This document shows positions 1,520 to 61,730 of a stretch of 64,000 bases of DNA, one piece after another. Under the pieces are notes generated by a model, which was not told the DNA's origin, searched no databases, and was given only the letters and a program-made list of their open reading frames with translations. Source of the DNA: Schmidtea polychroa (taxonomy: Eukaryota). A program made the position numbers and the translations under genes. How positions within the stretch are numbered: the stretch's first letter is position 1; the number at the start of each line of letters is the position of its first letter. Location: NCBI GenBank assembly GCA_044892525.1, contig CM097885.1:215884001-215948000 (forward strand), given 5' to 3'.

Positions 1520-1670
1520 AACAGAATTAGGCAAGAGATATGAACAAGCGCATCCCGTGCGCAGAATTACCATATCTCTATCATGTAACATGTCATGTTG
1601 TAAGTTAATTTTCTTCTTTATCCAATGCTACAACTCATGGAAAAAATGCGCGAAGCTCGATCACGGGCGC
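1520..1670 (+). pseudogene. Truncated N-terminus of the LEGTWFSP coiled-coil gene family
   Basis: MLQLMEKMREARSRA (1625-1670) aligns with VLKLLEEMRADRERA (23167 ORF) and YKLLENLRKDREQA (8700 ORF). It is preceded by an intron-like gtaag...ctttatccaa segment. Confidence 0.55.
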
Positions 1671-2889
1671 ATCACTATGTTAGAAGATGGACGAACATTA
1701 AAGATTTTGAAATTAAAACATTACATAATAGGAACAAATAAATATAGAATAAATATACATGTGGACAATAATCAATAGTATTTATGTGATTAATGAGATA
1801 AACATTATTATATTGTGATAATAACTTATATTTGATTATTAACAATTTGGATGGGATTAATCAACTTATTTATTTACGTTATTAAGCTGTAATTATATAT
1901 TTTATTTTTATTGATTAATTGGTTCTTGGTGATATCTTATTTTAAAAATAAAAACCCATTTACAATTTTATTTAAAGTTATGAATAATACTAATATATTC
2001 TTATATTAATTTCCTGATCATTATTATTNNNNNNNNNNNNNNNNNNNNNNNNNNNNNNNNNNNNNNNNNNNNNNNNNNNNNNNNNNNNNNNNNNNNNNNN
2101 NNNNNNNNNNNNNNNNNNNNNNNNNNNNNNNNNNNNNNNNNNNNNNNNNNNNNNNNNNNNNNNNNNNNNNNNNNNNNNNNNNNNNNNNNNNNNNNNNNNN
2201 NNNNNNNNNNNNNNNNNNNNNNNNNNNNNNNNNNNNNNNNNNNNNNNNNNNNNNNNNNNNNNNNNNNNNNNNNNNNNNNNNNNNNNNNNNNNNNNNNNNN
2301 NNNNNNTATTATTGCACATTTGCACAATTCGACAGACAGACACATTCAAAAATTATAGAATTGAAAATAGAGAGAGAGTTTAATTGTCAATTGATTTTTC
2401 TTTATTGACCAACAGTAAACGGCAAATTTCTGCTAAATGAAATCAATGTGCTTTATTTGTTTTTCTTCTGCAGGATTGTTTATTTTGTTTTTATTGCAAT
2501 ATATGCACATTATTTTTAAAACAGAAATTTTATTTTAACAGAAGAGTGTATTGACATTCGAAATGGAGTGTCAACAGAGATTTTATATATAAGTTGACTG
2601 ATTTCTCAGTCAAACCACCCAAAAAATAAAAGCTTCAGAAATTCAGAAATTGATATTGCAATATAATTTAGAGCATACCTATTTACACATCCGAGCTCAG
2701 GAAGCTGCAAGCATTCACATACACATACACACGCATTTACACACGCACGCATATATACAACACAAATTGAAATATATTTGAGGTGATTGCTAACTTTATA
2801 TTTTTAACTTTATATTTTACAAAATTTGTAATTGTGATAATTAAATAAATTTAGTGAATTTATTGAAATTTATTATTGTTTGTGATCTT

Positions 2890-3792
2890 ATTTATAAAAG
2901 AACCATCAAGTTGAGATTTGAGAACCTCAACAAACTAGTAGAAAATCTACAACGAAGGATCACCGAATGCAAGGGGTGGTGCTGGGAACTCGAAGCAGTG
3001 GCGTAGCAATAGGTTGTGAAGGTTGTGCACGGCACAAGGGCCCAGGACGAAAAATTAGTAAAATTTATACGTTCGAGCATTATAAATTCCCTGATTGTCA
3101 TCAAACCAAGCATCGCTTTGGCGTTTGTTTTGTTTTTATTAAGACAGCAACCACAGTTTGGACGGTTTATAAATTTAATATTATTAGGAATCTATATTGG
3201 ATATAGTTGTAAACCACATATGTCACATTTGTTCTTTCTTTTTATCATGTGATTCAATTTTATATTATGGTGAAATAAGCGTATGATCTGAGTTTTTTCT
3301 AAGAATTATGTTTCAATAAATTAGTGACAATAACAACAATTATTGTTCATTATATCATGATGGTACCTGGCATGTGCCCATTCTATATACAGAGAATACC
3401 GAGAAGTAACAAAATATCCTTTCAACCCAACCCGAAACGCTACTATTTCTGTTTTAAAATGCGCAAATTTACTCAGAGAGTTGCTAATCACCTTCCCCCA
3501 AGCCTGCCTATGGTTTGGTTCCTCGGATCACTTCGTTCGACAAATATTTTGTGCGTCCCAAAATCTGCACAAGGGCCCCAGAAATCCTTGGTACGCCACT
3601 GACTCGAAGGCACCTGGTTTAGCCCTTAGGAGTGCAGAAGCGCTTGAAGCTGATCCAACAGCTGCAACTTCAGAGCCCGCAGGACCAAATCGAAATCAAG
3701 GCCCTCCGGCTATATGTCCGGAAACTAGAGACCCAGCTCCACCAAAAGGACATCAATTAAGATTTGACAGAACGAATTCGCCCAGTTGCTAT
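2890..3792 (+). pseudogene. Degraded older copy of the LTR-borne coiled-coil gene, cut by the insertion at 3793
   Basis: LEGTWFSP at 3603-3625, then (after a frameshift) QKRLKLIQQLQLQSPQDQIEIKALRLYVRKLETQLHQKD, nearly collinear with the 23167 ORF. It ends in RIRPVA exactly at the TG of the 3793 element. Confidence 0.75.
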
Positions 3793-4379
3793 TGTTGGGC
3801 TAGAACTGATTTCTAAACCCAAAGTTAGAAAGGGGACGAAATATGTCAGTACACAAGACGCATACCCAGCATTAAGTTTACTTAAATAAAAATATATAAA
3901 AACACCAAGTAAACAATGATAACAGAGAGATAATATACCCAAAAATAAAACATCTGAATTAAAAATAAAATAAAACACGAGCAAGAAGTAGCACACGAAA
4001 ACTTACTCAAATATAACCGAAAGACATAAAACAACATAAACAAATTCGAATAAAGGCGATCAGTAAAAATTAAAAATAAAATTAAAGAAAATATCCATAA
4101 AATCTTACGTAAAAAAATTATATCAAAATTTTGTATAAAAATCCAGAATAATCCATAAAAAATTGCAAAATCCATCATGGCCGCCAAACGACCCAATAAA
4201 ATTTATAAAAAATAAATATTTTAGTTTAAAATATAAAAATTTTAGAAAAGAATTCACAAAAAATAATTTAAAAATAAGAAATAGATTAAATTTAGCATGG
4301 AATGTTCTGGAAATGCCCAAATCCATCATGGAGGTAAATTTAATAAAAATAATTCAAAAATAAAAACTAAAATTCTTAC

Positions 4380-5500
4380 GGAAAAATCGCCCTCTAAATT
4401 GATTAAAATTAAAAATCGAATGTTCTAGAATTAAAATAATTCGAATTTGTTATATTACATCAATGCACGCATGCATACTAGCACACCAAAATTAGGGTGA
4501 TAAACTAACACATTTCGTCACTTTTCAATTTTTACTCTTATGCCAAAATTTTGATTTTGATTTTTCTGAGATTGTAAGTAAGAACAATTTCATGGTGAAT
4601 TATAAATTATTATTATTTAAACCTCGTTTTCATTTTTTTCATTTAGTTACAAAAGTGTTGGAGTGAGATCGTCGGTTATCATTGATTTTGAAGCGAGATC
4701 CCACTCAATCCTAAACCTGTGCACCTTTTTCGTCGTTGGATCCAAAACCCTCGACGCTGCAGGTCCATGACCTGGCTAATATGCAAGATTGAATTGGGGT
4801 AGTTGGAGGTCGTACTGACTTCATGATATAAGCCACGGAGTTCATCGATAAATTTTCTCTGGAGCGGCGGGGCTCGATGAGCTCAATGGAACTAGGTAAT
4901 TTAGTCAAAGTTACGGTGCTTAAAAAATAAAAATTTAAAAATAAAAACAAAAATTATGGCACAAAAATTGCCATTAAAAATATCAAAATCGCGAAATAGA
5001 AAATTTTGGAATAAAAAGAATTCGAGTTTGTTTTAACGCATCACGTGTACAAAATAGGTATATATACCGACACGTTTCAGTCACAATTTAATCACTTTAT
5101 GCCAAATTTATTTTTCTGGTGAAATTCTTTGAATTATTAGTAGGAACTATTTTATTTGCCTTATAATATATTTTTTGTTGGGTTGTATATTTCATATTAT
5201 TTTTAACATTTTGTTTATTTTATTTCTTTTGAATCGTTGGATGTAAGAGTGATTAGAGTCGTACCGATTGTCTACGCCTCTGATCAGCCTTGCATTCAAC
5301 CAAGCTATAAATCTACAACAACATGCGGACATGCACTATCCTTATTATAGTTTTTTTTGTTCGGTCATCGGAGGTCGTCCACTTCATGGTTCTGCCATGG
5401 AGTTGTGTCGATAAAACCCTTCTGCTATGGCTCCAGCTATTTATTATCGGTCGACAACGGTATGTTTTGACTCCACATCACAGTAACGCTTGTCGTAGCG
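4380..5500 (+). repeat. Diverged tandem duplication of a ~550-bp module inside element A1
   Basis: GGAGGTCGT-ACTTCATG-GCCAYGGAGTT-TCGATAAA occurs at ~4806 and ~5370, and ATGCCAAA-ending blocks at ~4540 and ~5100. Copy A2 has only one such module. Confidence 0.65.
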
Positions 5501-6373
5501 GTCACAGTGGGGCCGTGTAAGCAAGCACTCTTCCCGACTTCAAATGCAGTACACAATTAAAATCAACACTAAAAATTTCACACACTACTTAACACTAGGA
5601 TCATAATTGAGTAGATCTCAGACCCAAACTGAACACATGTAGTCGGTTGAACATCATTGAACAGCTCGGTTATACCTATACGTTTGTCGAACCTCATTGA
5701 TATATATAATTCTTAATGTTAATATAAAAATTTTCTCAGAAGTAAACGCCATAATCCTCGTAAAGAAGTTCGACAAGCGAACATAATAAAATGAAAATGC
5801 TCAATTATTTTCTAAATATACAACCTTAATTCGCAAAACGGAAATCATTATTTCTGAATAACTAACAGTTCTGAAAGTAACATATATTACCCTTAAACAT
5901 AAAAATTGTTAATATGTAGGATCCCTGAATCACAAAGTACAACAAAAAATTCAAAACTATGATTTGTAAATACGTATTGTCATTAAATCATAAAATATGT
6001 CTTAATATTATATTTATAATTGTGAACTATTCATAAATCATAACTTAAAATTTTTCTTTTGAAAATTATTCTATAAATATTAAATTATAAACTATAATTT
6101 CGTATTGCACTGAAAAATCTAATTTTTGTCTTATATAAGATATAATGTATAAAAGTATTGTAATACTCAAGAACAAATATAATTTCATATTACACTTAAA
6201 TTATCATCTATGAATATTAAATTATAAAATACATCTCAGTATTACCCTTAAAAAATAAGGTGTTATGGTATAGTAGTATTAAATGATAACTTTATTAAAA
6301 TATGGAATACATCTTTAGAAGTATAATGTACAAATGTACCATCGTTCGGAATTATAGGAGAATTTTATAATTT

Positions 6374-6780
6374 ACATAAATGCCTAAATTAGGAATTAAA
6401 AGTTTTATACTAAAAATACCAATTATAATTTATAATTTTATACTACCTCAATGTATAATTTATTTATCACGCATAAATGCCTAAATTGGAAATTAAAAAT
6501 TTTGTATTAAGAATATAAACTCTAAATCCTAACTTTATATTACCCCAACGTATAATTCATAAGTTTCTAGACTGATTGTAATACATAAATGCCTAAATTA
6601 GAAATTAAAAGTTTTATATTAAAAATACAAATTATAATTTATAATTTTATACTACCTCAATGCATAATTTATTTATAATACATAAATGCCTAAATTAGGA
6701 ATTAACAATTTCATATCAGGAATATAAAATATAAACTATAACCTTATATTGCCTCAACGTGTAGTTTATAAATACCTAGA
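6374..6780 (+). repeat. Four ~100-110 bp tandem units in alternating A/B order (a ~210-bp dimer twice)
   Basis: CATAAATGCCTAAATT recurs at ~6374, 6472, 6583 and 6680. Units 1 and 3 share TATACTACCTCAATG; units 2 and 4 share TATATT-CC-CAACG. Confidence 0.85.
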
Positions 6781-8039
6781 TTATCAGGTAGAATTATACC
6801 CTTCACTTCAATTAGTAATTTAGCCTAAGCGATAATTTGGTTAATATGTGACTTATAAAGGCCCAAAGCATCACTGTAATTGATATATTACCTAAATGTA
6901 CAAATCCAGAAAAGCCTAGATCATAAACTATAAATTATATTTTCCCTAAATTCTGAACTATAAACTATAATTTTATAATTTATATATAAAAGCTATAAAC
7001 TATAATGTTACATTTTGTAAATAACCTATAATTATAAACCGTAAATTTTTGCACTTTGCTGGGATGTATGACTTATAGACATCTACATCTTAAACTATGA
7101 TTTCATATTCCATATAGTTATCTAATTGGCAAAGGACCAAATTCTAAATCCTAAGTTTATATTTCGTATATAACTGATAAATGACGAATGTATAAAATGT
7201 AAAGTTGCGCATGCGAAAATAGCTAGGTTATAAATAACCCATGCGCCAAAATTATGGAGTATAATGACAAACATAAAGAAGCGCGCCCAACCTTTAGATT
7301 GGAAACCGCAGCGGCATGAAGCTTGACGATAATTTAATTGAAACTAATTTAACCTCCAGTCGAAAGAGAAGATAATATTTAACATTTATTTAATCACATC
7401 GAAGTTCTAGTGGGCTGAGTCAGGATTGCCGAGAGAAGTTCATTGTAGATTTGAGTCTTGCGTGCTCCAGCTATTGCCGCTCGTTGCTGGGAATTGCCAA
7501 TCAGATTGGCAGCAGTGGATGAATTCCTGAACTTACGAATTTACTAATTTGGAATTTACAGTCTAACTTACTTCGAAGGATCCAGATGGATTGCAACACA
7601 GAGGTGTTGGGTCTGAAAGTCTAATATACCAGAATAAACTAAATTTATCAGAAAAAGTTTTTGATATTTAAAAGCATTACAATTAAATGTATTTAAAATT
7701 TAATATTCAAAACCATTGTAGTTTACTTTAAATTTGACCTTAAAATTTTAATCATAATTATTACAGTAAAACACCGTAAAATAGGCTGAGGACATTAATT
7801 AAGGTAGTTAATTGTTTATCCCCGGTTAAGTTTAATTTAAAGTACAGCATAAATTTGAGTTTGTCATTCAAGTGTAATTTAATTTAACCCAATTAGAATT
7901 AAGAATATTTGGAGTTTGATTTACGTTTTAAAGAATTTCCCTTTGTGCAGTCGTATATTTGACTGAGAGCAGTCGAATAGGAATAAACATTTTCTTTTGA
8001 ATTGTGTCAACCTTATTGACTATTATTACCCAATTAGAT

Positions 8040-8404
8040 ATGTCACACTCGGAAATTTTTAGCGATGAGGAAGCCGATAGACAGCTGATCACGCGGCTCC
8101 GGACCCGGTACATCTGGTACCGAATTCATGATTGGAACCGGGGGTTGGACCTAGATAATTATGGACCGGTCATCCGAAGTGGCCCAGAGCCCGATGCCCG
8201 GCGTGGGTGAAAGCAGAGCCCACTAACAATTTGCTACGAGAAGCCCGCGATCGAGCGGCTATCGAGGTAGAAGCTGCCCAGATGCGGCTGAAGAGAATCG
8301 AGCTCCAGCTCAGAGCCGAGGCAGAGGGAGTAAACCTCGAAGAGCTGGAAGAGACAGATGCCCCTCCACGAAAACGAGGGAGGCCCCGTAAGAACCCTGC
8401 CTAA
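8040..8404 (+). CDS. Small LTR-borne ORF with WYRIHDW motif, coiled coil and C-terminal AT-hook (one probable frameshift near 8172)
   Basis: ORFs 8004-8210 and 8207-8404 join if 1 nt is restored (the homologue at 22684 reads GTG ATC CCG AAG where this copy has GTC ATC CGA AG). The C-terminus PRKRGRPRK is a canonical AT-hook. Confidence 0.65.
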
Positions 8405-8699
8405 CTCGTCGGCAGTGGTAACTTGACCAAAACTATTTGACTAATCTGATCTAATGATATTGTGTTGCGTTTGACTTCATTAGTAGCTAGTATGACAAAT
8501 TGTAGAAATTTTTTTTTATTATAATTTTTATATTATAGTTTGTCGTGTGTCTTCATCATATAATAAATTATCTTTCTGTTATTACATTTAAGCCTTATAG
8601 CTTATGGGGTGTCTTCAGGGTTGAGGTGACCCTCCCTATCTTTCATCTATTAATTTTATGCAATTAATCGAATCACCTTTACGCTCATGAAAGCTGGCT

Positions 8700-9167
8700 A
8701 TGGAATTTTATTATTGTCTTCATTCAGTGTACAAATTACTCGAAAATCTACGCAAGGACCGCGAACAGGCCCAGCAACAAGTCGAAGACCTTCGAAGTCG
8801 GGTCGAGAAGCTCAAAGTCAAGTGCCGAGAACTCGAAGGTACTTGGTTCAGTCCGGCTGAGATGAAGAAACGAACAACACACATCTCACAACTCCAGACC
8901 CAGGCGGAGCAGAATCAACTCGAAATCCGAACACTGAAGATACAAGTGCACTCGCTCGAGAGCAAACTGAAAGAAAGGTTCATCCAGGACACTCTCCGAG
9001 AGCAGATTCGCCCACTTCCCGTGGAGCTGGCCAAGATATACCCACCAGCCCAGGCAAGCAAGCCGAAACGCAAACGGCTAGGGCGGAATACACGAGAAAA
9101 ATTGAAAAGGGCCTGGCTGGCCGAGCAAGCAAAAGCGAAAGAGCCTGAAGCCACTCCACAATCCTGA
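8700..9167 (+). CDS. LEGTWFSP coiled-coil protein, subtype A, open frame
   Basis: 155-aa ORF with heptad-rich KLLENLRKDREQAQQQ...LEGTWFSPAEMKKR...QLQTQ and a basic tail KPKRKRLGR. An AG acceptor near 8727 suggests an upstream exon; AATAAA at ~9228. Confidence 0.75.
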   Translation: MEFYYCLHSVYKLLENLRKDREQAQQQVEDLRSRVEKLKVKCRELEGTWFSPAEMKKRTTHISQLQTQAEQNQLEIRTLKIQVHSLESKLKERFIQDTLREQIRPLPVELAKIYPPAQASKPKRKRLGRNTREKLKRAWLAEQAKAKEPEATPQS

Positions 9168-9344
9168 GGAATGTTTGAGAGTGCGACCCCTCCTGGGTAA
9201 AACAGACATTGTAATAGTGTAGTGTTTAAATAAATGATTTTCATTGTCTGATGGATAGGTGATTAAACTTTATGATTGTCCAGAACAAGACGGTCGACAG
9301 AAAAGCGTTTGGGAAAACAATCTCGATAAGGGACCGAAATAAAT

Positions 9345-9550
9345 CGGACACATGCCTTCTATCGGCCGTCCGTGAACCCATAGAGTACTCGACAATTACA
9401 GTGCCTTGGCGCGCTCACTTTTTGCGAGTACTCAACCCCTTGGTACAGTACCAACGTTGATTACTCAACGGGTACCAAGCGGAAAATAACGTTGTATTCT
9501 GGGTTACGCTGGTAACAGCACTTAAACATTCAACCACCAGTAACCCACCA
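9345..9550 (+). ncRNA. Structured RNA/cis element at the 3' end of element A1 (four helices)
   Basis: Helices CGGAC/GTCCG, GAGTACTCG/CGAGTACTC, CTTGGTAC/GTACCAAG and GGGTTAC/GTAACCC with a GCTG-GTAA-CAGC hairpin. Compensatory changes are seen in copies at 23732-23949 and 15270-15530. Confidence 0.7.
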
Positions 9551-9570
9551 GTATTCTGAAAACGGCAACA

Positions 9571-10990: not shown

Positions 10991-11145
10991 ATAATAGAAT
11001 GACGCATGAAATAACGAAAAATGCAATAAATAATCAGGAAATTAATAAAACAAATAAAAAATATAATAAAAATAAAGAAAATTAAGGAAAATAACCAAAA
11101 AACAGGAAAAAGTAAACTAAATTAGAAAATAAGCGGTACTCAATT

Positions 11146-11281
11146 CTGATTGGTCTGCATAAACGAAAAATTCATATATAAGCAGACAGTAAACTTATTA
11201 TGGTTACTGTTAAAACTAAAAATTCACAGGTAGGAAAATGATAAAAATTCTCTACTGTTAAAACTAAAAATTCACAGGTAC
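11146..11281 (+). promoter_or_regulatory. Pol II promoter-like module: inverted CCAAT box, TATA box, 28-bp direct repeats
   Basis: CTGATTGGTC (11146), TATATAAGC (11175), then TACTGTTAAAACTAAAAATTCACAGGTA twice. The same arrangement occurs on the minus strand at 23980-24108. Confidence 0.6.
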
Positions 11282-14160
11282 TCAACCATCAAGACACCAG
11301 GACAAAATCAGACTATTAGGAAGCAGAAGATATTCAGAGACAATTCCAGATTTAAAGTCATAGCCATTAATTTAACTTTTCGACTCAGCCTTTGGAATCA
11401 CTAGTTCAAGATAGTTGGTAAGAGCGTGTTTTAGTTTTATAGATTGTATTAATGGATAATAATGTTAGAATATTTATTATATTAAATTAAAAGGTTTTAA
11501 TACGATTTTCTTCATTTGATCTCCTCTCAATAATACTGAATAGTAATGTTTAAATTTAAACATGAATGATAACTAAATATTTGTAATGTACAATTATATT
11601 TTGAATTTTTATTTTATTATAAATTTACAATGAGGAACGTGGAGTTGAGAAGATCCATACCATGGTGTGAGGAGCCTTCGGGAGCTCAGCCGATGGGTGT
11701 GGACCTTTTCAATCACGCAGCTGACGTGGGCCGTAATGTGGGGGCTTCCTCACGGGTCCGTCGCTGAAGGTCAGAAAATGCTGCAACGAACTGTCGAGAG
11801 TGAGGTGGAAGGTAATTCGAATTCTAGAAGGTGGGAATAATCGTAATTTGACAAGTGACTGAGGTGGCTACAAACTTTCTTCCTACTAGAGATCCATAAT
11901 TCTCAGACGCTACACTTTGAAACTGCTCGTTTGTCACCTTAAGAAATCTAAGTCGTTCACCAATATCGACAACTTCACCATCATCTATCCACAAATCACT
12001 TTTACGTCAAAATTTAGTCCACTTTGGTCTTAGATAATGGATTAGCTATTAAGATACTTACTCTTGCATCTTACGACAGCATAGTAAATATGAAAGAAAA
12101 ATTATTAACTGTATTTAATTAATGAGACAAAAATTTCGTAAAATTCCTTTATTTTCCTTTTTTAAATAATTTTGAATTGCCATTGGCTGGAACATGAAAG
12201 ATCATTTGCTTGAATCCACCCCCGATAAATTGTCGCCTTTGCATAGTTCGATAGAACCATCCATAAAGTGATACATTCCAACATGAGAAACGAGAGAGGT
12301 TGCATACCATACCAAAAAAATCCAATTTCCAAGGTTGATGAGAATAAACATGAGGCAGCATAATGGCTGAATAACCTAACTCCAAACATCAGAATAATCC
12401 ATGTTTTAGTGACAGAGACAGATATGAGCATACACCGTCCAAACGTGCGTAATCGGGTCATGGATAGACAGCAAATCTAGATAACGTAATAACGCTCATG
12501 ACAAATCACATATAGCAATACACACTGGAACCTACGCATGCCTCGTTTCACGTCTGTTAGTACACCTAACCGCGAAATATAACATTATCTATAATCTAAA
12601 AAAAAAATCAATAAATATATATTATAGGAACACACAAACTTACCTGTGTGTAGAAATTTAATGCCGCGAAATTTAACATATTTATTATAGGAATCTAAAA
12701 AGTGAGAGAAAATAATTAAGCATACAAGCACAGCACACATAATGAAAAATACATACAAAATTAAGTAAAGTGTTTTTCATGCGAAATTCAGATTGATTAA
12801 CATATAATTAACATATCAATATTTTAAAATTATTTAAAAAATTATGTACAAAAAAACTTTTGAATCAGATTCCGACTGCTCTACGTTGAGCTTTAGGGAA
12901 AAAGAAGTAAATACATCGTAAGATTTAATTATAAAATAATTTAGAATATAAAATTTCTTTAGATTTACAGATATTGAAGAAGATCCTTCGACATCTTTGA
13001 ATTTGCAGGAAAAACATCGCAAATCGTAAATTTTAATAAATTATTTTAACAAATTAATATTTTCATAGAATTACAGAAATAGACAAAATTCGAAAGAAGA
13101 TTACAAAAACTTAAAAAATATTTTATCCATTCTTTACTAAATGTCTTTAAAAAATAAATGTTTAGTGATTACTTTACATATTTATAATTATAAAAATATC
13201 TAACTTACATTTTTACGAAATAAATCCAAATAAATCCAAATAAATCCAAATAAAATACCATAAAATTCCTAAAAAACACCTGAAATTTAATTATCAATGT
13301 TATATATTATCAATATTATAAATGCTGACTAACAGTAATATTTAAGAACTTGAATAATGATCTCATAATTATATAAAATCAAAATTCAAGTCCTAAAAAT
13401 TACTTCAATGCAAAAACTTACCTTTAAACGATTTTTGGAAAATTAAATAAATGAAATTAAGTTAGCATTGTCATATAATTGGTGACTCACCTCAGGTGGT
13501 GTGCACACCAACTTATATTATAGACAATGTTAACTTTCGCGGTTAGGTGTATCATCCTCTATTCGACACTGCAGTAGACGAACTCGCTGGTTGATAACTG
13601 TAGTGAGAAAATTAATTCTGGTGCATGCACCTGGCGATTCCGAATTTTCTAATCAGATTGCTGATAGCTAAGCCGGCAGAGATATCAATGCAGCTGATGG
13701 TCTATAAGATAGATCCACATACATCAAGCACGAATTTTAGATTTCTCAACATGAATCCTGATGAATTTTAACTAAGATCAGTTAGATTGCGCTAGTGATT
13801 AGCCTTGTGTAATATATAATGCTGAACAGTAAAATAAAGGATTATAGTTTTCAGTAATTTCAATTTATTAAACTAATTTGTTAGTTTTGCTCATTCTCAA
13901 ATGCGACGGATATTCCTGAGGAAAATTAGAACACTACCACAATCATATAACCATAAGATTTGTTTTCAGCGACGAGTTATCACATCAAGTTAAGGGGACG
14001 TCATATATGACCAACCAGTCTTATAAGTAAATGATGTACAGATGGTTATCGTACACTGGGGAATTCCTACGGCCGCCGACCTATTTGGTAGCTAAACTCA
14101 TGAATGTAAAGTAAGAGAATTGTGGTGACTGATAAATGGTTATGCCGAACGTACGGCTGA

Positions 14161-14961
14161 ATGGATTTAGTCGAATTATGTTTACCTTTATTTTTCTTTA
14201 CAGTCACCAATATGTTACCACGCACGAAATCGCCCCTCAAACCCTGCTTCTCCTGTGCAGACAAAAACGTCGTAATCAAAGATTTACAGACCCAGATCGG
14301 TCGATACAAAAAGAGAATCGACGATCTGGAAGGTACATGGTTTAGCCCAGTACAAATGAAAGAGGTACAGAAGAAGCTGTACCGTAGTGAGCATTGCCGT
14401 GATGTCCTGATCAATGAAAGCAGATCCCAACGCAGTTTGATAAAAGAGCAGTCAGAGGCTCTTCATAAAGTTTATTTACAGGCGGCTACCACCCGGAAGA
14501 TCGTGAGTATCCCTATTAGTGAAGCGGACAATATCTTTCCCGTCCACCATGTCCCTTCGTTCAGTTCACCGCCTTCATCCAAGAAGACTTGTCGTGAGTG
14601 CGTGGAAGCCGACCTCTCTCTCAGGCCATCTAATATGCCTATTACCGGAACTAGTAAGGTGTTACCATCGTCTACGACCACCTCTGTAGCGTCATCGAAT
14701 ACTATGATCATCTCGAAACCCAAGCGTCGCCAACTGTCGAGGGAGGAACGCAAAAAGAAGCAACGTGAACGGGCAGTTGCTAAACAAAATAAACCAGCTT
14801 CGGACAACACAACTACTCTCGACGATCCCCCGGTAACGATCGATCTGACAGTAGGGATCCCAGGGCGAATCATCTCTGCCGCTGGTGTGACTTGGGAGGA
14901 AAATGCCTCCGAGTTCTTCGATTTAGACGAATTGCTGGCTGACACGGAATGGGAGAAATGA
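14161..14961 (+). CDS. LEGTWFSP coiled-coil protein, subtype B (CxxC N-terminus, Ser/Thr/Pro-rich and basic region, acidic tail)
   Basis: 266-aa ORF. The likely true start is the ATG at 14212 just after a ttacag acceptor. Motifs KPCFSCADKN, LEGTWFSPVQMK, KPKRRQLSREERKKKQR and FFDLDELLADTEWEK. Confidence 0.75.
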   Translation: MDLVELCLPLFFFTVTNMLPRTKSPLKPCFSCADKNVVIKDLQTQIGRYKKRIDDLEGTWFSPVQMKEVQKKLYRSEHCRDVLINESRSQRSLIKEQSEALHKVYLQAATTRKIVSIPISEADNIFPVHHVPSFSSPPSSKKTCRECVEADLSLRPSNMPITGTSKVLPSSTTTSVASSNTMIISKPKRRQLSREERKKKQRERAVAKQNKPASDNTTTLDDPPVTIDLTVGIPGRIISAAGVTWEENASEFFDLDELLADTEWEK

Positions 14962-15269
14962 AAGTCTCGCCGTGGAATAATCTTGCTGTGTGTGAATTGT
15001 CGAACTGAACCCCCTCTACCTTATCTCTTCCTTTGTCTGTTATCTACCAAATGGCGCGTGTTGTATATAATTTATCTGTATATTGTATTATGGTGAGAGA
15101 ATAAATCCAATGTTTGATTGTCAATTTTGTTTTTGAATCAATTATTTCTTTCGGTAAGAAGCTCGGTGTAGATTTTATGAATAGAGTAAACGTTTTTGGA
15201 AGTCCAACAAGTAATAGTCGATTAGCATCCAATTCAAAGAAATGCGGGGTTTGATGATGCGGTCAGGCG

Positions 15270-15530
15270 TAAGTCCTTCCATCGGCAGTCAGGGAAAGGA
15301 AGTCGAGGCCTCAGTAAGGAGTAGTCCTAAGGCAGGGGCTCACCTACTTACTGGCGTCTCGCCGACACAGTACAGTTCCAACGTGAAGAAATTCGCGGGT
15401 GCTGTGTTGAAGTATAGGTTGTGCGGGGTTCTGCTCAGGGTTGAGGTCATATCTAACGTAAATGAAATGGACACCCATCTCCTAGGCGAAAGTGCGAAAT
15501 AGTTGGAATCAACCGAGCACTACCCCAGCA
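15270..15530 (+). ncRNA. Third, highly diverged copy of the structured 3' module
   Basis: CCTTCCATCGGCAGTC loop motif; CAGTAAG/CTTACTG enclosing GCTCAC; ACACAGTAC/GTGCTGTGT enclosing AGTTCCAAC plus a GAAA hairpin; GGGGT..TGCTC/GAGCA..ACCCC at the terminus. Confidence 0.6.
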
Positions 15531-18500
15531 AGATTATTTAAATATATTTATTTATTTTAAAACAAAATTATTGATTTGGGAATTCCCCTATCTCTAAATT
15601 TTGCTTCAACGGCTCTAGACTCCAATAAAATTACAGAAAAACACTAAAATCTATTTTTAGTAAAAATACACCCTTACTTCAACGAGGGAATGTCGATATA
15701 AAATTATAGAACAAAACGAACTCCTATAGTACCGACCAATCACCATCGTCGGCATGATTACGCTGGATAAGTTGTATACCCCCCCCCCCTTTCAATATCA
15801 AAAGGAAACAGAACAATAGTCACTAATTTAAGCCCCTCCCTTTTCTGGATCTGCTTCTCTCACGATGATATCACCTTCCTTTTTCTACAAACCTTATTAG
15901 TCATATTATTAAACCTGAGTAAAATGAGTGATTGGGCTGTAGGAATAAAAAAAACCCTTGAATGGACATAATCTTGCATGATCGACGGTAAATCAAACAC
16001 AGGATAAACAGCACATAAATAAACTTTTAAAAACCATAAATTGGAAAAATTCAAAGTCAAATACAAATCTTTATTGGCACCGCAGGAGTTGACTACTTTT
16101 TGCTCAGCTCGTTGAGTTTGGGGTGGAAAGATCATCAGATTTGATCATTACTGCAAGGACAGGCTGCCTGGAATCACCTACTACGCTTATACTCACCTGC
16201 AAAACGAAAATAATCAATATGAAACATATGAAACATACTTTCACATATAAGATTAACGACGTCAATGAGAGGGTGACCTCCTTCTTCTTTTGGGGGTGGT
16301 TTGTAGAACAAACCAGACACTTAATATCAGAATTTGCGATCACCATTTATTAACAATCGTGCCAATTTTTTTTGCTAGAACCATTAAACTGCCGCTAATC
16401 ATAGTAGCATGAATCCGAAAGATCATAATAATTCCCCTTCTGTTTAGTGGAACCCTGTAAAATTTTGGTTCATAGTCTGCATCTAAAACTGAATTAATGA
16501 AATTTTTCTATTTATTTTATTTATATAATATAAATGATTTAATAATATATTACACCAAACACCACTGAGAACCATTTCCTATAGTATAACAAAAAAAATC
16601 AATAATCTTACATTATAGAAACATACATACTTACTTTGATTTCACGTTGATGTTCTCATTTATAGCTCAATGAGATACATCTTATATTATAGAAATCTGA
16701 AAAGTGTAAGAAAGATTAAAAACTGAACACAAACGCTACACATATTAAAAAACACATACAAACCTTTGATTCGTAGAAATGTAACGATGAGATACGTTTC
16801 TATAATAATTCTATTTTAGACAATTTTTAGAAAAAAAGATCGTTGAAAATTTTTAAAATTATATTTTAATGATGTAATACACTAGAATTAATACCGGCAA
16901 CGCGTGTAGTTATGGTTATTTTCGTCATGGCAATTCTGACTTCAGATTTTGGATCTGTACATCTGGCAATTATTTTCGGATTTATCTGTCGGAGCGATAA
17001 ATCTTCCTCATTTACAGTTACACTACCTAATCCATATTAGAGAGTATTGGCCTTCTAACTGCTGGATTTTCTTACTGGAATTGTTTACCGGTTTCTAGTC
17101 GTGATAAAATCATCAAATGCCAAGGTACGACATCGATTAATATCAGAAGTGGTGTGTGTGAGGTATCGTTGATATTCGTGTAATGACGGCTTATCGTATC
17201 CTAGACAGTAAATATTTATGATTTGTTTACTAGGAAATCAGATTTTTTGACAGACAAGACAATATCTACGGAGACTGTCTGGATTGATCGGTCGAATTTT
17301 CCATCGATTAAACGAAAATTATCTGATGTGGGAAATTCCCGTGGACTTTGCCTTATCAAGATAAATCGATTTGCTGGAACAAAGTAAGTCGACGCTACTT
17401 TTATACGTGACGAATTTAAAGGTGCTCCTCTTTTGCAGGACTATTGAAGTGAAAGGTGGTCTGCTGATGACGCTGTGAATATACAACTACGGGTTTCCTG
17501 ACGATGGCGAGTAGAGAAGGCGAAGCTTCGCTCCTGGCGATTAACGATAATTGAACTTGATGGAATTATGATTATCATCATGGAATTTCACCTAAATCTC
17601 TCATCCGATCACGACTAAATGAGGACCTCTGGGTTCTCACCTCCCTCTTACTATTCCGACTCGGAGTTTATCCGCTCCCCACGACACACCCGAGGATCAT
17701 AGGTATTGCTACCCACCATCCTCGCATCATCATAAGGGACAGATCAACTCAAATGAATATGACAAAAATTGGAAATATCAAAAAAAAAATTTCATACCAC
17801 AAATGATCGATCAACACAATTAAATATAAATAAATTACCTGGCAACCATGCCATTTGGATTTTCAATCATGATACCCTTGGCCAACTTCCCATCCATCCA
17901 TCAAACCAAACATAATTATTTCATATTCAAGTCCGGCGAGAGTTCTAACTCCTGTTACGTTCGATAACCGCCAACACCACCCAATCATCGTTTTCATACT
18001 CTCGGTTGCTAAACATTCTCCGCAACATTGTGATTGTCATTCATTCCATGTTTCTATTCTTCATTGGATCTTTCCCATGTCTTCCAAATAATGTTGGCAT
18101 TCCTCGGTATCACGATTGAACTCCCAGAAATAAGTCCTTGGTATATAAAATATAAAAATTTATTAAATTAAATATTCAAATTTCTACTATATATCTTCGT
18201 TATATCAAATAAATCTACCATGACAAATAATTACAAATCATACCCAAAGTCTCGAAATCGATTTAGTAGAGCTGAATTGGCTATGAGTTATTTCGTAATA
18301 TTCCCGTAATCGTTTGGATTTCCAAAAACAAATCTTTTCTTCGTAATTGATTCTGATGAACAGGTAGTTATTTCTTTTAGTTATTTCTTTCTAGTCGAGT
18401 GAGTTTACAGTGTCGTGATATCAGTTGTTGGGCTAGAACTGATTTCTAGACCCAAACTTCTAATTGTGACTGAAATGTGTAGGTACACAACACGCAAAAA

Positions 18501-21500
18501 GCAAAAAGTATAGTTAAATATTAAAAAAAAATATAAATAAACAATAATAATTAAAAGAGAAACAACAAAAAATGTAAACACAGAAATTAAATAAAATTAT
18601 ACAAAAGCAAGAAGTTATGCAAAATCTAACTCAAAAATAACCAAATAAACATAGAGTTACAAAAAACAAACTCGAATAACTTAAAAGACGGTAAAAACAG
18701 TAAGAAATTCCAGAAAAACCCAGAACATTCCATAAAAATGGCGATGACCATCATAAAAGCTACCTTGAACAATGAAAGTTAGAAAAATAAATAAATTAGT
18801 ATTAAAAATAAAAAAATCTTAAAAAGAAATTCATAAAACATCAGTTAAAATAAAAATTAAATTAAAAGTAATATGGAATGTTCTGGAACCGTTCCAAATC
18901 CATCATGGACGTGAAATTAACGAAAAATAATTAAAAAATAAAAATTTAAAAATAAAAATTATGACGCAAAAATCGCCATTAAAAATATCAAAATTACAAA
19001 ATAGAAAATTCTGGAATAAAAAGAATTCGAGTTTGTTTTAATGCATCAATACATACACGTGTACAAAATAGGTATATATACCGACGCATTTTAGTCACAA
19101 TTTAATCTTTTTGTATGCCAAAAATTTTCATCGAAAATTCAAGTGAAACCAAAAGTAAGGACCGTTGATTATATTATTTTAATTGACATTGTGTTATTAT
19201 GTCCATTATATTAATTAATTTTTGTCTTTTTGTCACATTTTATTTTGCTATTATGTAACAAAAGTGACCAGCGTCGTCGTGAACGGGTTGTATCCACGAC
19301 GCTGATCAGCCTTGTTTCTAACTAACTGCATAAATTCGGGTCTACGACCCTACATGCATAAAAATTTCAATTTTTTTTTAACCGGAGGTCGCCACGAACA
19401 AATGGTTTCTAACCAGGAGTAGGGCGGGTAAATCCATCCCGGTAGTTGGCATAGTCATAGGGACTATGCGGACGAAATAAAATTTGGGATAGTAATCGCG
19501 GGAAACATAGTACAATAAGGCCTATCGTACCGTATTCAGTTGAGTCGGGAAAGTAGGAAAATTTTAATTAATTGACTTTTCGGTAAATGACATATCCAAA
19601 ATAAACACTCAACTATTCTATAGGAAATATATCACTAGGAATACCTAAACGGGAAATATCCCAGACTTAAATTATCACAAAAGTTCTCAAGTTGTCGGTT
19701 AATTGCACCAAATTATTCAAATGTTTAATACTTTGGATATCGAATATTATTAATATACTCTAATTGGTATTACCTGTAATTATATTTAATCAGAAATTTA
19801 ATAATCAAGAACCCGAATCTAGTGTAATTACCCAGTTTATGATACCTTAATTTTGACGAAATTGATTCCCTTAAAAGTACTTTGAATGAGTACTCTACAA
19901 TGTAGCTTCATAAAAATATTGATATCATGAAAGCCCTTTTATCTCTGGTAAACAAAATTCTTCAATTTTTCTAAAATGAAAATCTCTATCATATTGTATA
20001 GTACCTTATCGATCATGTCGTAGAAGAATCTGAAACTGTTATGCTTTTAAATCATCTCTTAATGAATATGAAAAGATTGAGTCCAAACCCACCCACGATT
20101 TTACATATTAATGTCTAGACTATTGGGTCAATGAATACAAATTTTTTAGGCTAGATTGTCGAAAATATATTTTATAAAGTTATTGGTGCCTATATTATTT
20201 GATAATGATTTTAAATCTATACGAACCAAACTTGTGCTTCATATAATTATAAATTAACATTGATATTATGTAGTTAGCATATTTCGAATCGATATTATTT
20301 AAAAATGTATTTCAGGAATTTATGTCTATACCAATTGTTAACCTTGTATTAGATAAAAGATTTTCTACATATACCTACTAATATCAACATCATCTGATTA
20401 TTTTAGAAATGTATATATTAGTTGATTAAAAAGAATCTGCCCCATCCAAAGGACGTTCTATAAATGTATACCCGGGTGGCCATATTGTTTAGTTAATAGA
20501 GATTAATTATTAAACCATACCATCTAGAATTAGGTTATAGGAATTTATATATTAACATCTATATTAATTTGACTAATTATAAAATGACTTCTTGAATTAT
20601 TTCATGAAAATTTTATGTTTACTTGCATATATCTATATTAAAGTCAAGCTTATATAAAAACTTCGAAATTTTTATGCCATAACATGCCGTACCTTCTCAA
20701 ATTAATATTTGACTATCCTGTAAATATATTCAACTTATATTATTTCTATGAAATAAATTTAGAGAATTTTTCTCAATTGACCCCCTTCAAACCATGTGGT
20801 CATTACTAGTTACTCACAGATTCTAGTTTAGCTTGTTTTTTTAAATATATTGTATTTCATGTTAAAGAGAAATTTTTTTTTATAATTTTCACCAATGACC
20901 CCCCCTTCTCCCGGTTCATACCGTCGTTAATGACTGCCTAGTCATGCTAATTTGGGTTATATTCAGAAAAATCACTCATAATTCATTTCATAATAATTTC
21001 ACCATTTTTATGATTGACCCCAGGCTCTAATCTTTATAATTATAAATCTACATTAACATTTAATCCTCATTTAATACTATTTAGATTTTATTCATGAATA
21101 ATTAACACAATTAAATTTATTTAATAAAGAAAATTGGATCACAGGATATTACAGAGAACTCAATTAATTTCTTCCTATTTTTATCCCTTAATGACATCAT
21201 CGATCTAACATCCCCTTCTACCCTACTTATTAACTATATAACTTACTCCAACCAATTTATCGATTTCTTAAAACGTTACTATTAATAGAAAATTTCAAAA
21301 CCGATATTATCGATTTCCTTTTCCTCATAGTAAAATTTGACCAATAACACCGCTTCTATTAACAACCCTGCAAATCCCGGGTTACCCTCATCGAACCGAC
21401 TCTAGTTGACCGAATGGACGACACATACTCTCTCGCAAACGAGCCAATCGCTATCGACCATGTCAGTAGGAACTCCAACCCTCCTAGAAAACTTATCTCA

Positions 21501-22683
21501 CTCGTGCGCATTCAACCCCTGTCCCAGAAGTAGATCCAAAGTATGTCGGAAAAGGCAAAGGACCTTTCCCCAGGTTTGACGGCCCAACCTAAGATAGGTA
21601 CCCACATGATCATGGACGAGGGATAATAAGCAACAAAATGTATTATACTTCAAAGCGTTAGTTACTTAAATTCAAATGAAATGAGGGTAGAATCACTTAA
21701 TAATTATTACTAGTTAATTAAATTCAACAGAAACTAAACCATTATATTCAACCAAAATTATAAACCTGATTGGAAAAATTCAGTCCAGCCACTGTACAAG
21801 TCTTACCGAGGAGAGCAGAGCCTCTCTAAAAACTCCCCTCGGGTTCAAATTATTAACCTAAATTTCCCCTGCATGTACAAACATAGATCCAAAATATTGA
21901 GATAATTGCAAATTTCCAACTGGATACCGGACAAATTAAGTAGTAAGTTCTGGATTCCCATCAGACAGCCGAAGTTTTTGAAAAATTGTCCAAACAAATT
22001 TTGTGATTAGTTAAAATTCACGAGGAATATATTTCTGAAATTAAACGAATTTAGAAATCTGAAGATTAATTACCCATCCCATTGAAATGACGATGAAGCT
22101 GCTTACAACCCCCACGGATGAGAATTGCTAGGGGCCGAATATACTATTGGCACGTAGTAATATCCCTCCCGTGGTGGATCCTAGCAGCATAGTTTTCCTT
22201 TTGTAATGATTTTTTTTTAAATAAATTATTTTTAAATAATGGTTAAACATTACATCAACAATTTAATATTTTTGACTCAGTTAAACAACAGTAAATTGAG
22301 AATAAAAAATTAAAGATAGAAATTTTGTAGTTCATTTACTAATTTTAATTTATCAACTCTTAACGTATCAAATCTAAACTTAGTAGTACTTAAATTACAT
22401 ATATATGAATTTAGCTAAGTTAACAATTATATATGGTCAAATTCTTAAACTGCTAATTATCGAATAAATCCCCTTGAGTTCATTCGAAGAGTCAAATCGG
22501 GTAACTGATTCGCAACTTAAACCCATCTTAATCACAAAGGGCATTGTCTGTTGACTTGATGTGTGTTACATTTGAGGTTGGAATATAATATTACGTATGA
22601 ACGTCCCTGGTTAATACGAACCCAAATGGGTGAACGAAGGTCAGTTATGAAATATTTTAATATTTCTCTTCATCATTACAATC

Positions 22684-22947
22684 ATGTCCAACACCGAACC
22701 AAGGAGCGTACAGGAAGATCACTCGGCAACCGACTCAAGCCTCGGAATTACCTGCAAGGAGGCAGACGAAGCCGTTCGATTGAGGTAGGACGCAGAACTC
22801 GCCCGGCTAAGGTCTAGATGGATCTGGTATAAGATCCATGGTTGGACCTACCAGAACGTAGTACCGGTGATCCCGAAGGTGGAACTGTACATCAATTATA
22901 CCTCATTGGCTTTGAGCGACGCATTCGACGATGCGTGTATTGATTGA
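22684..22947 (+). pseudogene. Homologue of the 8040 ORF (WYKIHGW motif), one in-frame stop
   Basis: MSNTEP...RLR*DAELARLRSRWIWYKIHGWTYQNVVPVIPKV aligns with LITRLRTRYIWYRIHDW...PVI. Confidence 0.7.
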
Positions 22948-23166
22948 TTTTTGATAATGTTCTGTAGCGTTGACTATTATTACTATTGACTATAATTTTC
23001 CTTAACGTTGACAGTCCCATAAGGTTTGGTATGATTCATAGAACTCGGTTTAGGTGCGCGTAGAGGAGGGCTGCGACGAGGAGATCACATTCATTTAGTA
23101 TTGATGCTCATAATAATGCTCGACACTCGATGCTGACGTGAAAATTACTAATGTTGTCTTGTTTTA

Positions 23167-23649
23167 GTGCTAAAACTCCTGGAAGAGATGCGAGCAGATA
23201 GAGAGCGGGCGCAGCAACAGGCAGAGGAATACCGGGCCAAACTAGCACGAGTCAAGGCCCATTGCCGGAATTTCGAATGTACCTGGTTCCCGCCAGCAGA
23301 AATGAAAAAACGGATGAAGCTGATCACTCAACTGCAACTCCAGAGTGCACAGGATCAGGTTGAGTTACGGGCCCTCCGCCTGAAAGTGAAGGAGCTAGAG
23401 ATCAAGGTACACCAACAGGACCTTGATCGAGAGGTCATTTCCAAGATCCGACCCATGAGTGAGCTACTCCACATACCGAAGGAGTGCACCCCACCAATAA
23501 TTCCGAGGAAGAAGATCCGGCCGGGTAAAGCGGCGCGGGCGAGAATAAGACAAGCCAGCCAGGCCCAATTAACGCTTCATTCTGCTGGGTCAGAGTCTAC
23601 TCCGAAAGAATCGACTAGGACACTATATATTCTGATCATGTTTTCCTAA
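23167..23649 (+). CDS. LEGTWFSP-family coiled-coil protein, subtype A, open frame
   Basis: 160-aa ORF with FECTWFPPAEMKKR, QLQLQSAQDQVELRALRLKVKELE and a basic tail PRKKIRPGK. AATAAA overlaps the stop codon. Confidence 0.75.
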   Translation: MLKLLEEMRADRERAQQQAEEYRAKLARVKAHCRNFECTWFPPAEMKKRMKLITQLQLQSAQDQVELRALRLKVKELEIKVHQQDLDREVISKIRPMSELLHIPKECTPPIIPRKKIRPGKAARARIRQASQAQLTLHSAGSESTPKESTRTLYILIMFS

Positions 23650-23731
23650 TAAATTTTTACTGGTACGTCCATATCTGGGCATTTTGATTTTTCCCATAAC
23701 GTTAACTGTCGCAACGGGGACGAAAAGAAAC

Positions 23732-23949
23732 CGGACATAGGCCTTCTATCGGCAGTCCGTGAACCCCAGTGGGTGCTAGACAATTATAGTATGTTAAAAA
23801 TGCTCACTTTTTGCTAGTACCCAAACCCTTGATACAGTACCAACGTTGATTGCTCAACGGGTATCAAGTGGTCAGCTATAAATTGTATTCTGGGTTACGC
23901 TGGAAACAGCATGAGGAGGTAGAGATTTCGCGGTACCTGTAACCCACCA
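23732..23949 (+). ncRNA. Structured 3' module of element A2
   Basis: GGGTGCTAG/CTAGTACCC, CTTGATAC/GTATCAAG, GGGTTAC/GTAACCC and GCTG-GAAA-CAGC; paired positions co-vary relative to copy A1. Confidence 0.7.
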
Positions 23950-24826: not shown

Positions 24827-25217
24827 ATGGCCCATAAAAGTAATTATATAAAACCCTGCTTCTCGTGTTCAGACAAGAACATGGTCATACGAACACAACA
24901 AGAAGAAATCGCACTGTTAAAGAAGAAGCTCGATCTTCTGGAGGGCACCTGATTCATCCTCGTCCAGAATGAATCCAACCAGAAAGCGGTGAAATTGGAG
25001 CCCTGCTGTAACAATCTCCTCGAAGAAAATCAACCCCAACGTACCTAGATACGGGAGCAGTCCCAGGCTCTGTTTCATGCGTACACCAAGAACTAGCTCG
25101 AGGCTCGGATCACGAGGCTGCCTTAGGCCGAAAAATGTCAAATCACTTTTTCACCCGTCTATCGCCAACATTACTAATACGGTAAAACAAATCAAAATAT
25201 TCCAGATAAACCCAACA
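24827..25217 (+). pseudogene. Degenerate subtype-B LEGTWF gene followed by family terminus AAACCCAACA
   Basis: MAHKSNYIKPCFSCSDKNMVI...LDLLEGT*F...IREQSQALFHAY aligns with the 14212 ORF; terminal motif at 25208-25217. Confidence 0.75.
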
Positions 25218-29960: not shown

Positions 29961-30627
29961 AAATCTTAGAATTTTAATATCGGGAATATTAATATGAGCT
30001 ATAGTAAAAAAAATTACAAAAAATAAAATAAATTTATTCGATTGTTGATTAATAATATAAAAAAAATTAAACTTATGAATGTTATTAGTGTGAACAGTGT
30101 TGTTGTTTGTTTTCCTTGTTATATCTGGATTTATTGTTGTTAATTGGATGTGCTGTTACCTTACAACTACTTCCCCTTAAGTTTCTGCCGGGTCCTTGAA
30201 TGATTTTAGAACGTCTTACGTCCACGTATTTGAATTTCTTTTAGGACGGAAAATCTAAACCTGAAGAAGAACAGTTTTCTGCCAATAACCATGTGTCTAC
30301 TCCTTTTATTTTTCTCTAACAACAAAAAAGAAATTCTCAAGATGAAAAATAAATAACAAAGAAATTTTATTGTATTAGTACTATAACGTTAAATTCAGAA
30401 AATATAAGTCAGATCACGCGTAGGTACAATATCTGCCAACAGGGAATCCATATTAACTCGTCCTATGATGCTTGCAATAAAAGGCTTCTCCACAGTCAGG
30501 TCTGGAGTATCGATAGAGTCGTGAAGCTGTATGAAGGCGGAGTTTTATTTCCGTCTTACAAAGATTTTGCCTCTTCGGCTTGAGAACTACTGACACTGGG
30601 GTAGACGTGCTTAAATCAATGAGTGTA

Positions 30628-61400: not shown

Positions 61401-61444
61401 ATTTCTCTATTAATTACTCCTTCATCTGAAGTTACTTCTACATG

Positions 61445-61693: not shown

Positions 61694-61730
61694 TGGTCTA
61701 TGTAATCTTTCGTTTTTTCGAATATATTCA

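Follow-up and report, generated by a model that had tools for sequence, protein, structure and literature searches.

A selected gene family within the long terminal repeats of Burro-type giant Ty3/Gypsy elements of Schmidtea polychroa

The open reading frame (ORF) at positions 8700 to 9167 of a 64,000-nucleotide stretch of the Schmidtea polychroa genome (the window, meaning the whole stretch that was analysed) recurs along the same DNA, which raises the question of whether it belongs to a host gene family or to a mobile element, and of what its product does. An earlier note had listed seven copies. A scan of the window with profiles built from natural copies of the ORF detected six places above background (32-167 bits, compared with a best score of 9.5 bits for shuffled sequence in 10 control scans). 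These six hold the core of the gene, whereas the seventh place, at 1625, is a 49-nt fragment in which both the motif and a profile match are absent:

1625..1673, + strand: short piece similar to the beginning of the A2 exon (49 nt, 78%, E 9e-4)
3603..3792, + strand: older A-type copy, frameshifted and truncated by the LTR that begins at 3793 (46 bits over 3603-3754)
8691-9167, + strand: open frame of 158 codons from stop to stop (140 bits at 8745)
14161-14961, + strand: open frame of 266 codons from stop to stop (167 bits at 14239)
23152-23649, + strand: open frame of 165 codons from stop to stop (151 bits at 23185)
24827..25132, + strand: decayed B-type copy with stops (73 bits at 24851)
30543..31012, - strand: decayed B-type copy with stops and a frameshift (32 bits at 30986, minus strand)

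Three of the seven copies thus keep open frames, as the earlier note had stated, and four are broken. The EGTWFSP motif, which had been described as seemingly invariant, varies among copies (EGTWFSP, ESTWFSP, QGTWFSP, ECTWFPP, EGTWFCP, and EGTWYSP), and the residues fixed across 22 aligned copies are K, T, W, P, M, and K. Seven copies within 31 kb do not constitute a cluster but correspond to ordinary repeat density.

The repeated ORF is a real gene of an element and not a host gene family: it lies within the LTRs of Burro-type giant Ty3/Gypsy elements, near the LTR 3' end. In the AT-rich genome of 781 Mb, four scans returned 6,051, 5,717, 5,511, and 6,988 subtype candidates, 150 of which were scored in each scan; the candidate sets overlap and are not copy numbers. 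The flanks of the A copies reveal a repeat of ~5.5 kb with TG...CA ends, both of which were located in 14 of 20 loci. Exact 4-bp target duplications occur at 9 independent informative solo copies, a count that leaves out two 3' LTRs (L038/L039), the duplicate L028 (of L021), and the AT-microsatellite loci L027/L035; the TTTA 'duplication' at L038/L039 was dropped as a coincidence, both being 3' LTRs. The terminal 14-mer occurs 2,225 times in comparison with zero occurrences of a control, frequently in same-strand pairs ~30 kb apart. Among the candidate pairs fetched, three of four A-type pairs are true LTR pairs with target duplications (99.98, 99.68, and 100% identical), and two of three B-type pairs are true as well (99.92% identical), with an LTR of 3.9 kb in a sister family of ~30 kb; L066/L067 and L104/L105 proved not to be LTR pairs. 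By their end coordinates, complete elements span 35,061 bp (A) and 29,846 bp (B). Overall, the carrier LTRs measure 3.9-5.8 kb and the whole elements 30-35 kb, and there are thousands of them genome-wide. The ORF is present in both LTRs of three A-type and two B-type complete elements, 750-860 nt upstream of the LTR end. Paired LTRs around gag-pol rule out a DNA transposon or non-autonomous unit, and all copies with located ends lie in LTRs rather than outside mobile elements. Together, the complete elements and genomic LTR copies confirm the suggestion of the earlier note that the gene is LTR-encoded. The corresponding features of the window are as follows:

3793..9550, + strand: subtype A1 LTR of 5,758 bp (TG...CA), whose ends agree with those of genomic copies and of LTR pairs in full elements
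6373..6771, no strand assigned: AT-rich tandem array with a period of ~97, in the presumably exchangeable middle of the LTR
8040..8404, + strand: ORF-U, a second LTR gene, frameshifted near 8196, with its ATG behind an acceptor
8726..8727, + strand: AG of the phase-1 splice acceptor that precedes the subtype A exon
8728..9167, + strand: subtype A exon (helix, TWxxPxxMK kink, helix, basic helix)
9229..9234, + strand: AATAAA, a presumed poly(A) signal, 322 nt upstream of the A1 LTR end
9310..9550, + strand: strongly conserved LTR end of ~240 bp, probably R-U5
10993..15530, + strand: subtype B1 LTR without its first ~170 bp, interrupted by another, inserted repeat at ~12560-13550
14212..14961, + strand: subtype B ORF, 249 aa from its ATG, with an acceptor 8 nt upstream
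18426..23949, + strand: subtype A2 solo LTR of 5,524 bp with an exact 4-bp target duplication, CAGT
22732..22930, + strand: broken and shortened A2-type ORF-U (approximate limits)
23168..23649, + strand: subtype A2 exon, open, with the same phase-1 acceptor

The window holds LTR remnants only. The A1 LTR at 3793..9550 has no internal region on either side and is flanked by CTAT and GTAT, which differ by one mismatch, and the companion gene ORF-U is broken in both open A copies; the 8700 locus itself is only a dead remnant. The repeat at 12560-13550 inside the B LTR is very abundant, and is inverted in L107. Directly behind the A1 LTR, at 9551-10900, there is a decayed stretch that resembles gag-protease and contains a PBS-like site as well as a C-x2-H-x9-C-x3-C motif; it has no Pfam match and is unrelated to the internal region of the A1 LTR's own element, and we take it to be CsRN1-like.

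Membership of the carriers in Ty3/Gypsy follows from the TG...CA termini, the 4-bp target duplications, the paired LTRs around gag-pol, and the PR-RT-RH-IN order. The internal region of the A element contains a RING gene, a frame of 4,791 codons (stop to stop), and then TRAF and BIR-RING genes. The large frame encodes CCHC, MATH, fusion glycoprotein, protease, RT, RNase H, integrase, and ankyrin domains (PF00098, PF22486, PF24664, PF00077, PF00078, PF17917, PF00665, and PF12796). The B element has the same domain order, although its frame is broken and an in-frame MATH match is absent; TRAF and RING genes are present, and Pfam gave no BIR match. Many accessory ORFs lie behind pol, and their expression needs splicing. 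A and B have an identical primer binding site (PBS), situated 7-8 nt past the 5' LTR (L056:6765-6790, L098:8232-8256). It resembles a tRNA-Pro site; a search for a matching tRNA gene found none. The start of the B LTR holds the complement of part of this PBS. A canonical PBS abutting the LTR was considered and rejected, since its 15 matches share no downstream sequence except for one duplicate. A polypurine tract is absent before the 3' LTR in five of five elements, with 9-10 purines in the last 20 nt; instead, a conserved non-purine sequence occupies this place in both families, in which a short hairpin-like motif precedes one of the GGG-CCCCGAGTG type (L059:3776-3815, L101:4315-4354), and plus-strand priming may be non-canonical in these elements.

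This organization agrees with that described for planarian Burro/GYPSM1 elements, namely a length of ~30-35 kb, multi-kb LTRs, a polyprotein of ~4,800 codons, and BIR, RING, and TRAF genes (PMC6431247). The polyprotein likewise matches in its CCHC Gag, MATH, the fusion glycoprotein between Gag and Pol, PR-RT-RH-IN, and ankyrin. The assignment to Burro is made by this architecture, the comparison being with the published description rather than with the numbered references Burro-1 to -4. No Pfam match at E 0.001 was obtained for BCL2-like, SMC, SUMO-like, or dUTPase-like motifs in the A element, some of which came from HHpred in the Burro review (PMC6431247, available text). That description concerns domains of the internal region, and its text describes no LTR ORF. 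Our literature search found no ORF described inside Burro LTRs, although Grohme 2018, Jurka 2007, Lee 2026, Repbase, or figures and supplements may annotate one. Thus, the carrier giant retrotransposon is already known, and the LTR gene family is apparently undescribed.

The two LTR families differ in their gene content: A-family LTRs carry the ORF together with a second selected gene, and B-family LTRs carry one longer version. Of 63 distinct subtype A copies, 57 have an AG at the same phase-1 position, though the DNA upstream of it diverges; upstream of this acceptor, an in-frame stop occurs within 20 codons in 46 of the 63 copies and an in-frame ATG in 20. Since the acceptor is conserved and the upstream DNA is not, the exon is predicted to begin at 8728, and the ATG at 8700, from which the protein had been thought to start, lies upstream of the conserved acceptor and is probably incidental. 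This conservation pattern bears out the splice acceptors of the earlier note and indicates that subtype A is a second coding exon. Inspection by eye of ORF-U, the spacer, and the LTR end revealed no conserved ATG with a phase-1 donor that could mark its first exon. In contrast to the A exon, subtype B contains an ATG of its own, which follows an acceptor by 0-10 nt in 25 of 29 copies. Contigs from three presumed-RNA runs (a guessed run type) and from one other run overlap the ORFs; among the 15 matches listed, out of 93, none contains a joint, and the contigs gave no transcription start site.

The second gene of the A family, ORF-U, had been overlooked. Its sequence retains between A1 and A2 an RLRxRxIWxxIHxW block, a hydrophobic-K-x-E-P motif, and a terminal KRGRPRK, as well as a helix; we take the hydrophobic-K-x-E-P motif to be SUMO-site-like and KRGRPRK to be AT-hook-like. 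ORF-U has no Pfam match, sequence searches found no homologue of it (Atlas matches were below 0.9 or lacking), and it is absent from the B loci scanned. Its acceptor-to-ATG spacing varies (2 nt in 34 copies, 1 nt in 20), so that a coding leader shared with the exon is unsupported. An AWTAAA between both genes in 75 of 76 copies was discarded as a signal, because it is expected by chance in AT-rich DNA.

The ORF lies upstream of both AATAAA and the conserved LTR end. The putative polyA signals of the earlier note hold for five of six LTRs, in which AATAAA is located 300-441 nt upstream of the LTR end; none is present in L056. The LTR end is 92-96% identical between L056 and L060, as compared with 59-78% for the ORFs at these loci, and the conserved terminal segment is also present in LTR ends that lack the ORF. 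Among 35 loci chosen by LTR end, eight (L143, L145, L146, L153, L154, L158, L161, and L162) share the terminal ~240 bp and have no A, B, or ORF-U gene within 1.5 kb; these appear to be related LTR families with other, lost, or more distant cargo. A GTAAGT donor-like site, absent in A, is located ~260 nt upstream of the B1 and B2 LTR ends (L098, L208; ~15270 in the window) and is a candidate for a major splice donor inside the LTR.

The encoded proteins are 146-250 aa long, consist of helix and linker, and have no hydrophobic stretch. In AlphaFold models, the motif separates two long helices from each other, and a linker and a basic helix follow (pLDDT 83 and pTM 0.35 for A); in subtype B (pLDDT 62, pTM 0.34), the linker is long and disordered, and there is a short terminal helix. 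The models agree with the predicted kink and basic tail. Heptad positions are 50-80% hydrophobic, which would be consistent with oligomerization via a kinked coiled coil. The basic segments are Arg/Lys-rich with a net charge of +7/+9, and we take this tail to be NLS-like. The B ORF comprises a CxxC, the helix-kink-helix, a variable linker, the basic helix, and a conserved acidic-aromatic C-terminus, the last 25 residues of which have a charge of -8 and which remains recognizable in the diverged B2 family. Its acidic and aromatic/leucine composition we regard as an activation-domain-like pattern. The CxxC that the earlier note assigned to subtype B is indeed there, the first in both B families and a second in B1 alone. 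Amino-acid motifs common to A and B persist where DNA identity is 34-38%.

The absence of any known domain was upheld in both sequence and structure searches. No Pfam match was found in 15 members and no PDB sequence match under E 0.05, so that homology to Sag or Nef is not indicated either; sequence searches gave no homologue of established function (Atlas matches below 0.9 or none), and fold searches retrieved nothing more specific than generic coiled coils (best Z 7.0, rmsd 9.4), with no retroviral accessory protein among the fold matches. Two unannotated relatives were found among 1.84 billion representatives (P0001, 42%; P0002, 30%), one of which was refound by a profile. P0002 is fused to a calponin-homology domain at the acceptor position and is probably a gene-model chimera from another genome.

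The ORF is under strong purifying selection in replicating lineages and decays once inserted. An initial dN/dS estimate of 0.04-0.10 was derived from matches ranked by protein score and was therefore biased; it was replaced by samples chosen by LTR end or by non-coding DNA. The first of these consists of 35 loci selected solely by their LTR end, irrespective of the ORF, among which 27 match the ORF profile, 23 have the full ungapped 80-codon core, and 20 are stop-free. In these copies, pairwise pN/pS is 0.15-0.30 in all six identity bins, in comparison with 1.0-6.9 in shifted frames and 0.26-0.52 in the in-register antisense frame, and the pairwise counts contain no sign of positive selection. 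The second sample consists of 30 loci chosen by non-coding DNA, of which 28 were aligned and 26 are distinct relatives of the window copy. Variants shared by at least four copies comprise 8 non-synonymous and 24 synonymous changes, and private variants 57 non-synonymous (5 stops) and 33 synonymous changes (Fisher p 3.5e-4), with 10 unclassified variants left out of these counts. The neutral expectation from the non-coding mutation spectrum is an N:S ratio of 2.63, which is rejected for the shared variants (p 3e-8), whereas the private ratio of 1.73 is close to it (p 0.06). As the shared variants are constrained and the private ones near neutral, selection acts during the replication of lineages, and inserted copies decay: 6 of the 26 close relatives have stops, and 2 have frameshifts. 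The claim of purifying selection is thus correct for the ORF; however, with private changes near neutral, the open frames at three loci of the window are no proof of local selection. For ORF-U, pN is 0.14 and pS 0.74 between L056 and L060; shared variants (non-synonymous to synonymous) are 0:13 in its 5' part and 10:13 in its 3' part, the latter not significantly different from private variants. In the B protein, the last 36 residues have a dN of 0.00-0.09 at a dS of at least 0.66, a constraint equal to that on the core, and the linker, with a dN of 0.15-0.34, is much less constrained.

Divergence of the LTR genes is out of proportion to that of their carriers. Five A elements are 96-99% identical in RT-RNase H (pS 0.13-0.31), yet their ORF cores are 43-90% identical and synonymously saturated (pS 0.45-0.98); here the A2 ORF is represented by a proxy from another A2 copy, and no RT was obtained for two further elements. 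Identity between A and B amounts to 88-90% in RT and to 22-28% in the ORF, and between B1 and B2 these values are 99% and 63%. The RING gene also diverges fast between families (25%). The elements e056 and e155 (L056/L058 vs L065/L211) have a mosaic backbone, with a pS of 0.01 in RING, 0.22 in RT-RH, and 0.83 in the LTR gene. In A LTRs, the middle 2.5-3 kb (5100-8080 in the window; L021-L040) exists in at least four unalignable types with AT-rich tandem arrays, flanked by a common 5' end and a common gene cassette, and one ORF subtype (core 93-100% alike) is found on four of these types. Because the LTR cassettes greatly exceed their backbones in age, the simplest inference is that elements exchange them and that recombination places old LTR modules on a backbone common to all; the gene would then follow U3 rather than the backbone. 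L031 has two copies of the first 1.1 kb of its LTR, which lie 2.2 kb apart and are 97% identical.

As to what the protein does, we tentatively favor a nuclear regulator, encoded in U3, of the element's own transcription, to which we give somewhat less than an even chance. The ORFs presumably sit in U3 and would be read as 3'-terminal exons of spliced RNAs; the protein would oligomerize by its kinked coiled coil, enter the nucleus by the basic helix, and act in trans on the LTR of its own element, raising or protecting transcription. In B, the conserved acidic-aromatic tail could serve as the activating module; in A, chromatin contact could be made through the AT-hook partner ORF-U. An activator is favored by the basic helix, the acidic tail, the AT-hook-type partner, and the tracking of the gene with the variable LTR and not with the backbone. 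However, neither module is universal, as A lacks the acidic tail and ORF-U was not found in B, and the occurrence of one ORF subtype on at least four mid-LTR segments speaks against a strict lock-and-key relation with the arrays, although a target could lie nearer to the ORF. In addition, no ORF was detected within 1.5 kb of 8 of the 35 related LTR ends, escape from RNA silencing could yield cassette diversity whatever the protein does, the activation-domain, AT-hook, SUMO, and NLS labels are pattern likenesses and not tool matches, and there is no homologue with an established function. With protein and target presumably co-located in U3, whole cassettes could be swapped. The wider proposal that Burro LTRs are exchangeable cassettes of one or two spliced nuclear genes acting on their own U3, ancient alleles being shuffled on a near-uniform Gag-Env-Pol, appears rather doubtful as a whole. 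If true, it would amount to a trans-activation or anti-silencing system of an animal LTR element's own, with thousands of solo LTRs as potential responders across the genome.

A Rev/Rec/CERV-like factor is an unlikely alternative, in which the basic helix would bind unspliced RNA and the coiled coil would multimerize, the intron-rich genome of ~30 kb being exported or processed. The many accessory ORFs behind pol that need splicing would suit such a factor, as would the Arg/Lys-rich helix and the position of subtype A as a second coding exon with its start elsewhere, and CERV of Cer1, a spliced nuclear protein needed for export, offers a precedent (PMC10309623, available text). Its response element would be expected in the backbone or the LTR end, yet these are 92-99% identical while the ORFs are 43-65% identical; moreover, no sequence or fold likeness to CERV or Rev was found, the B tail by eye misfits the leucine-rich export pattern, and the AT-hook partner is left unexplained.

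We judge equally improbable a coiled-coil decoy or adaptor that would act on a host nuclear protein of silencing, apoptosis, or ubiquitin pathways in an arms race. The same elements do carry BIR-RING, TRAF, and RING genes, and the ORF diverges between families about as fast as the RING gene. Burro1 is a PIWI target (PMC8532177), and according to a second-hand report its IAP protects stem cells (PMC13465017), both in the available text of these sources. Nevertheless, the other cargo consists of recognizable host domains, whereas the LTR ORF matches nothing, and the pairwise counts show no sign of positive selection.

Selection by the animal on a domesticated family expressed from solo LTRs is very unlikely. 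Thousands of solo LTRs retain the acceptor, the ORF, and AATAAA, the 80-codon core is intact in 20 of the 27 ORF-bearing copies chosen by LTR end, and private changes fall slightly under the neutral ratio; against this stand the stops and frameshifts of close relatives, the four broken copies among the seven in the window, the lack of a conserved start codon in the A exon, and the concentration of constraint in shared variants. Finally, it is scarcely credible that there is no protein function and that codon-like conservation stems from an antisense frame or RNA structure: a 220-codon antisense frame overlaps the ORF in L060 and the in-register antisense ratio is also below 1, but in every bin the ratio is lowest for the sense frame, neither L056 nor the window retains an intact antisense frame, the A/B amino-acid motifs survive extensive DNA divergence, and the acceptor marks the edge of conservation.

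Several known systems resemble the LTR gene in part. Selected protein genes wholly inside an LTR are familiar from a few retroviruses; MMTV sag, HIV nef, and foamy virus bel2 are retroviral genes in or over U3, and Tas and Tax are retroviral trans-activators. The likeness to sag and nef drawn by the earlier note, which extends to bel2, holds for position, each being an accessory gene at the 3' end of the genome that is copied into both LTRs and reached by splicing, but the anatomy points to a nuclear regulator rather than to a membrane or signalling protein. Unlike sag, nef, bel2, Tas, and Tax, the A family has two genes wholly inside a Ty3/Gypsy LTR, and the protein is soluble and helical. 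Our literature search found no selected gene wholly inside the LTR described for Burro or Ty3/Gypsy.

CERV of the C. elegans element Cer1 is described as a spliced, fast-diverging nuclear protein with a leucine-zipper hairpin, a KRKK signal, and a Cys loop (PMC10309623). It shares with the LTR protein a Ty3/Gypsy-type carrier, fast divergence, leucine-zipper helices, a basic signal, and cysteines, and presumably also splicing and a nuclear location; however, it has 517 aa, exons in common with gag, and two globular domains. VANC proteins of Arabidopsis VANDAL transposons are family-specific anti-silencing factors that co-evolve with their own non-coding tandem repeats (PMC5735166, available text). 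Both systems combine element-encoded factors with variable tandem repeats in the element's non-coding DNA, but VANC belongs to plant DNA transposons, targets DNA methylation, and has no homology to the LTR protein, and here an ORF subtype is not tied to one array. The additional ORFs of plant LTR retrotransposons of the Grande GENE23 type are conserved, some are nuclear, and a regulatory role has been proposed for them (PMC7264820, available text). They are likewise conserved family-wide and of obscure origin, but are internal and often antisense, whereas the Burro-type ORFs are in sense orientation and inside the LTR.

Burro elements are very abundant in planarians, are PIWI targets, and reportedly aid stem-cell survival (PMC8532177, PMC13465017, available text). 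If the element encodes a nuclear regulator, then how Burro stays expressed under piRNA control becomes testable, and the saturated cassettes on a near-identical backbone provide a clean system for LTR recombination and balancing selection.

Several features of the window are independent of the LTR gene. A host gene for ICMT lies in a single frame at 25605-26456, among the LTR remnants (PF04140, E 4.5e-27). A remnant of an ISXO2-like transposase is located at 28178-28911 (minus strand) and a Spin-doc zinc-finger fragment at 44757-45335 (minus strand). A young Tc1/mariner-type element occupies 52300-53823, with a DDE_3 frame of 349 codons and 216-bp inverted repeats that are 99% identical. Two frames at 61091-62336 (minus strand), with a weak zinc-knuckle match and a coiled coil, are 65% alike to L110:9281-9770 and probably represent another retroelement fragment.
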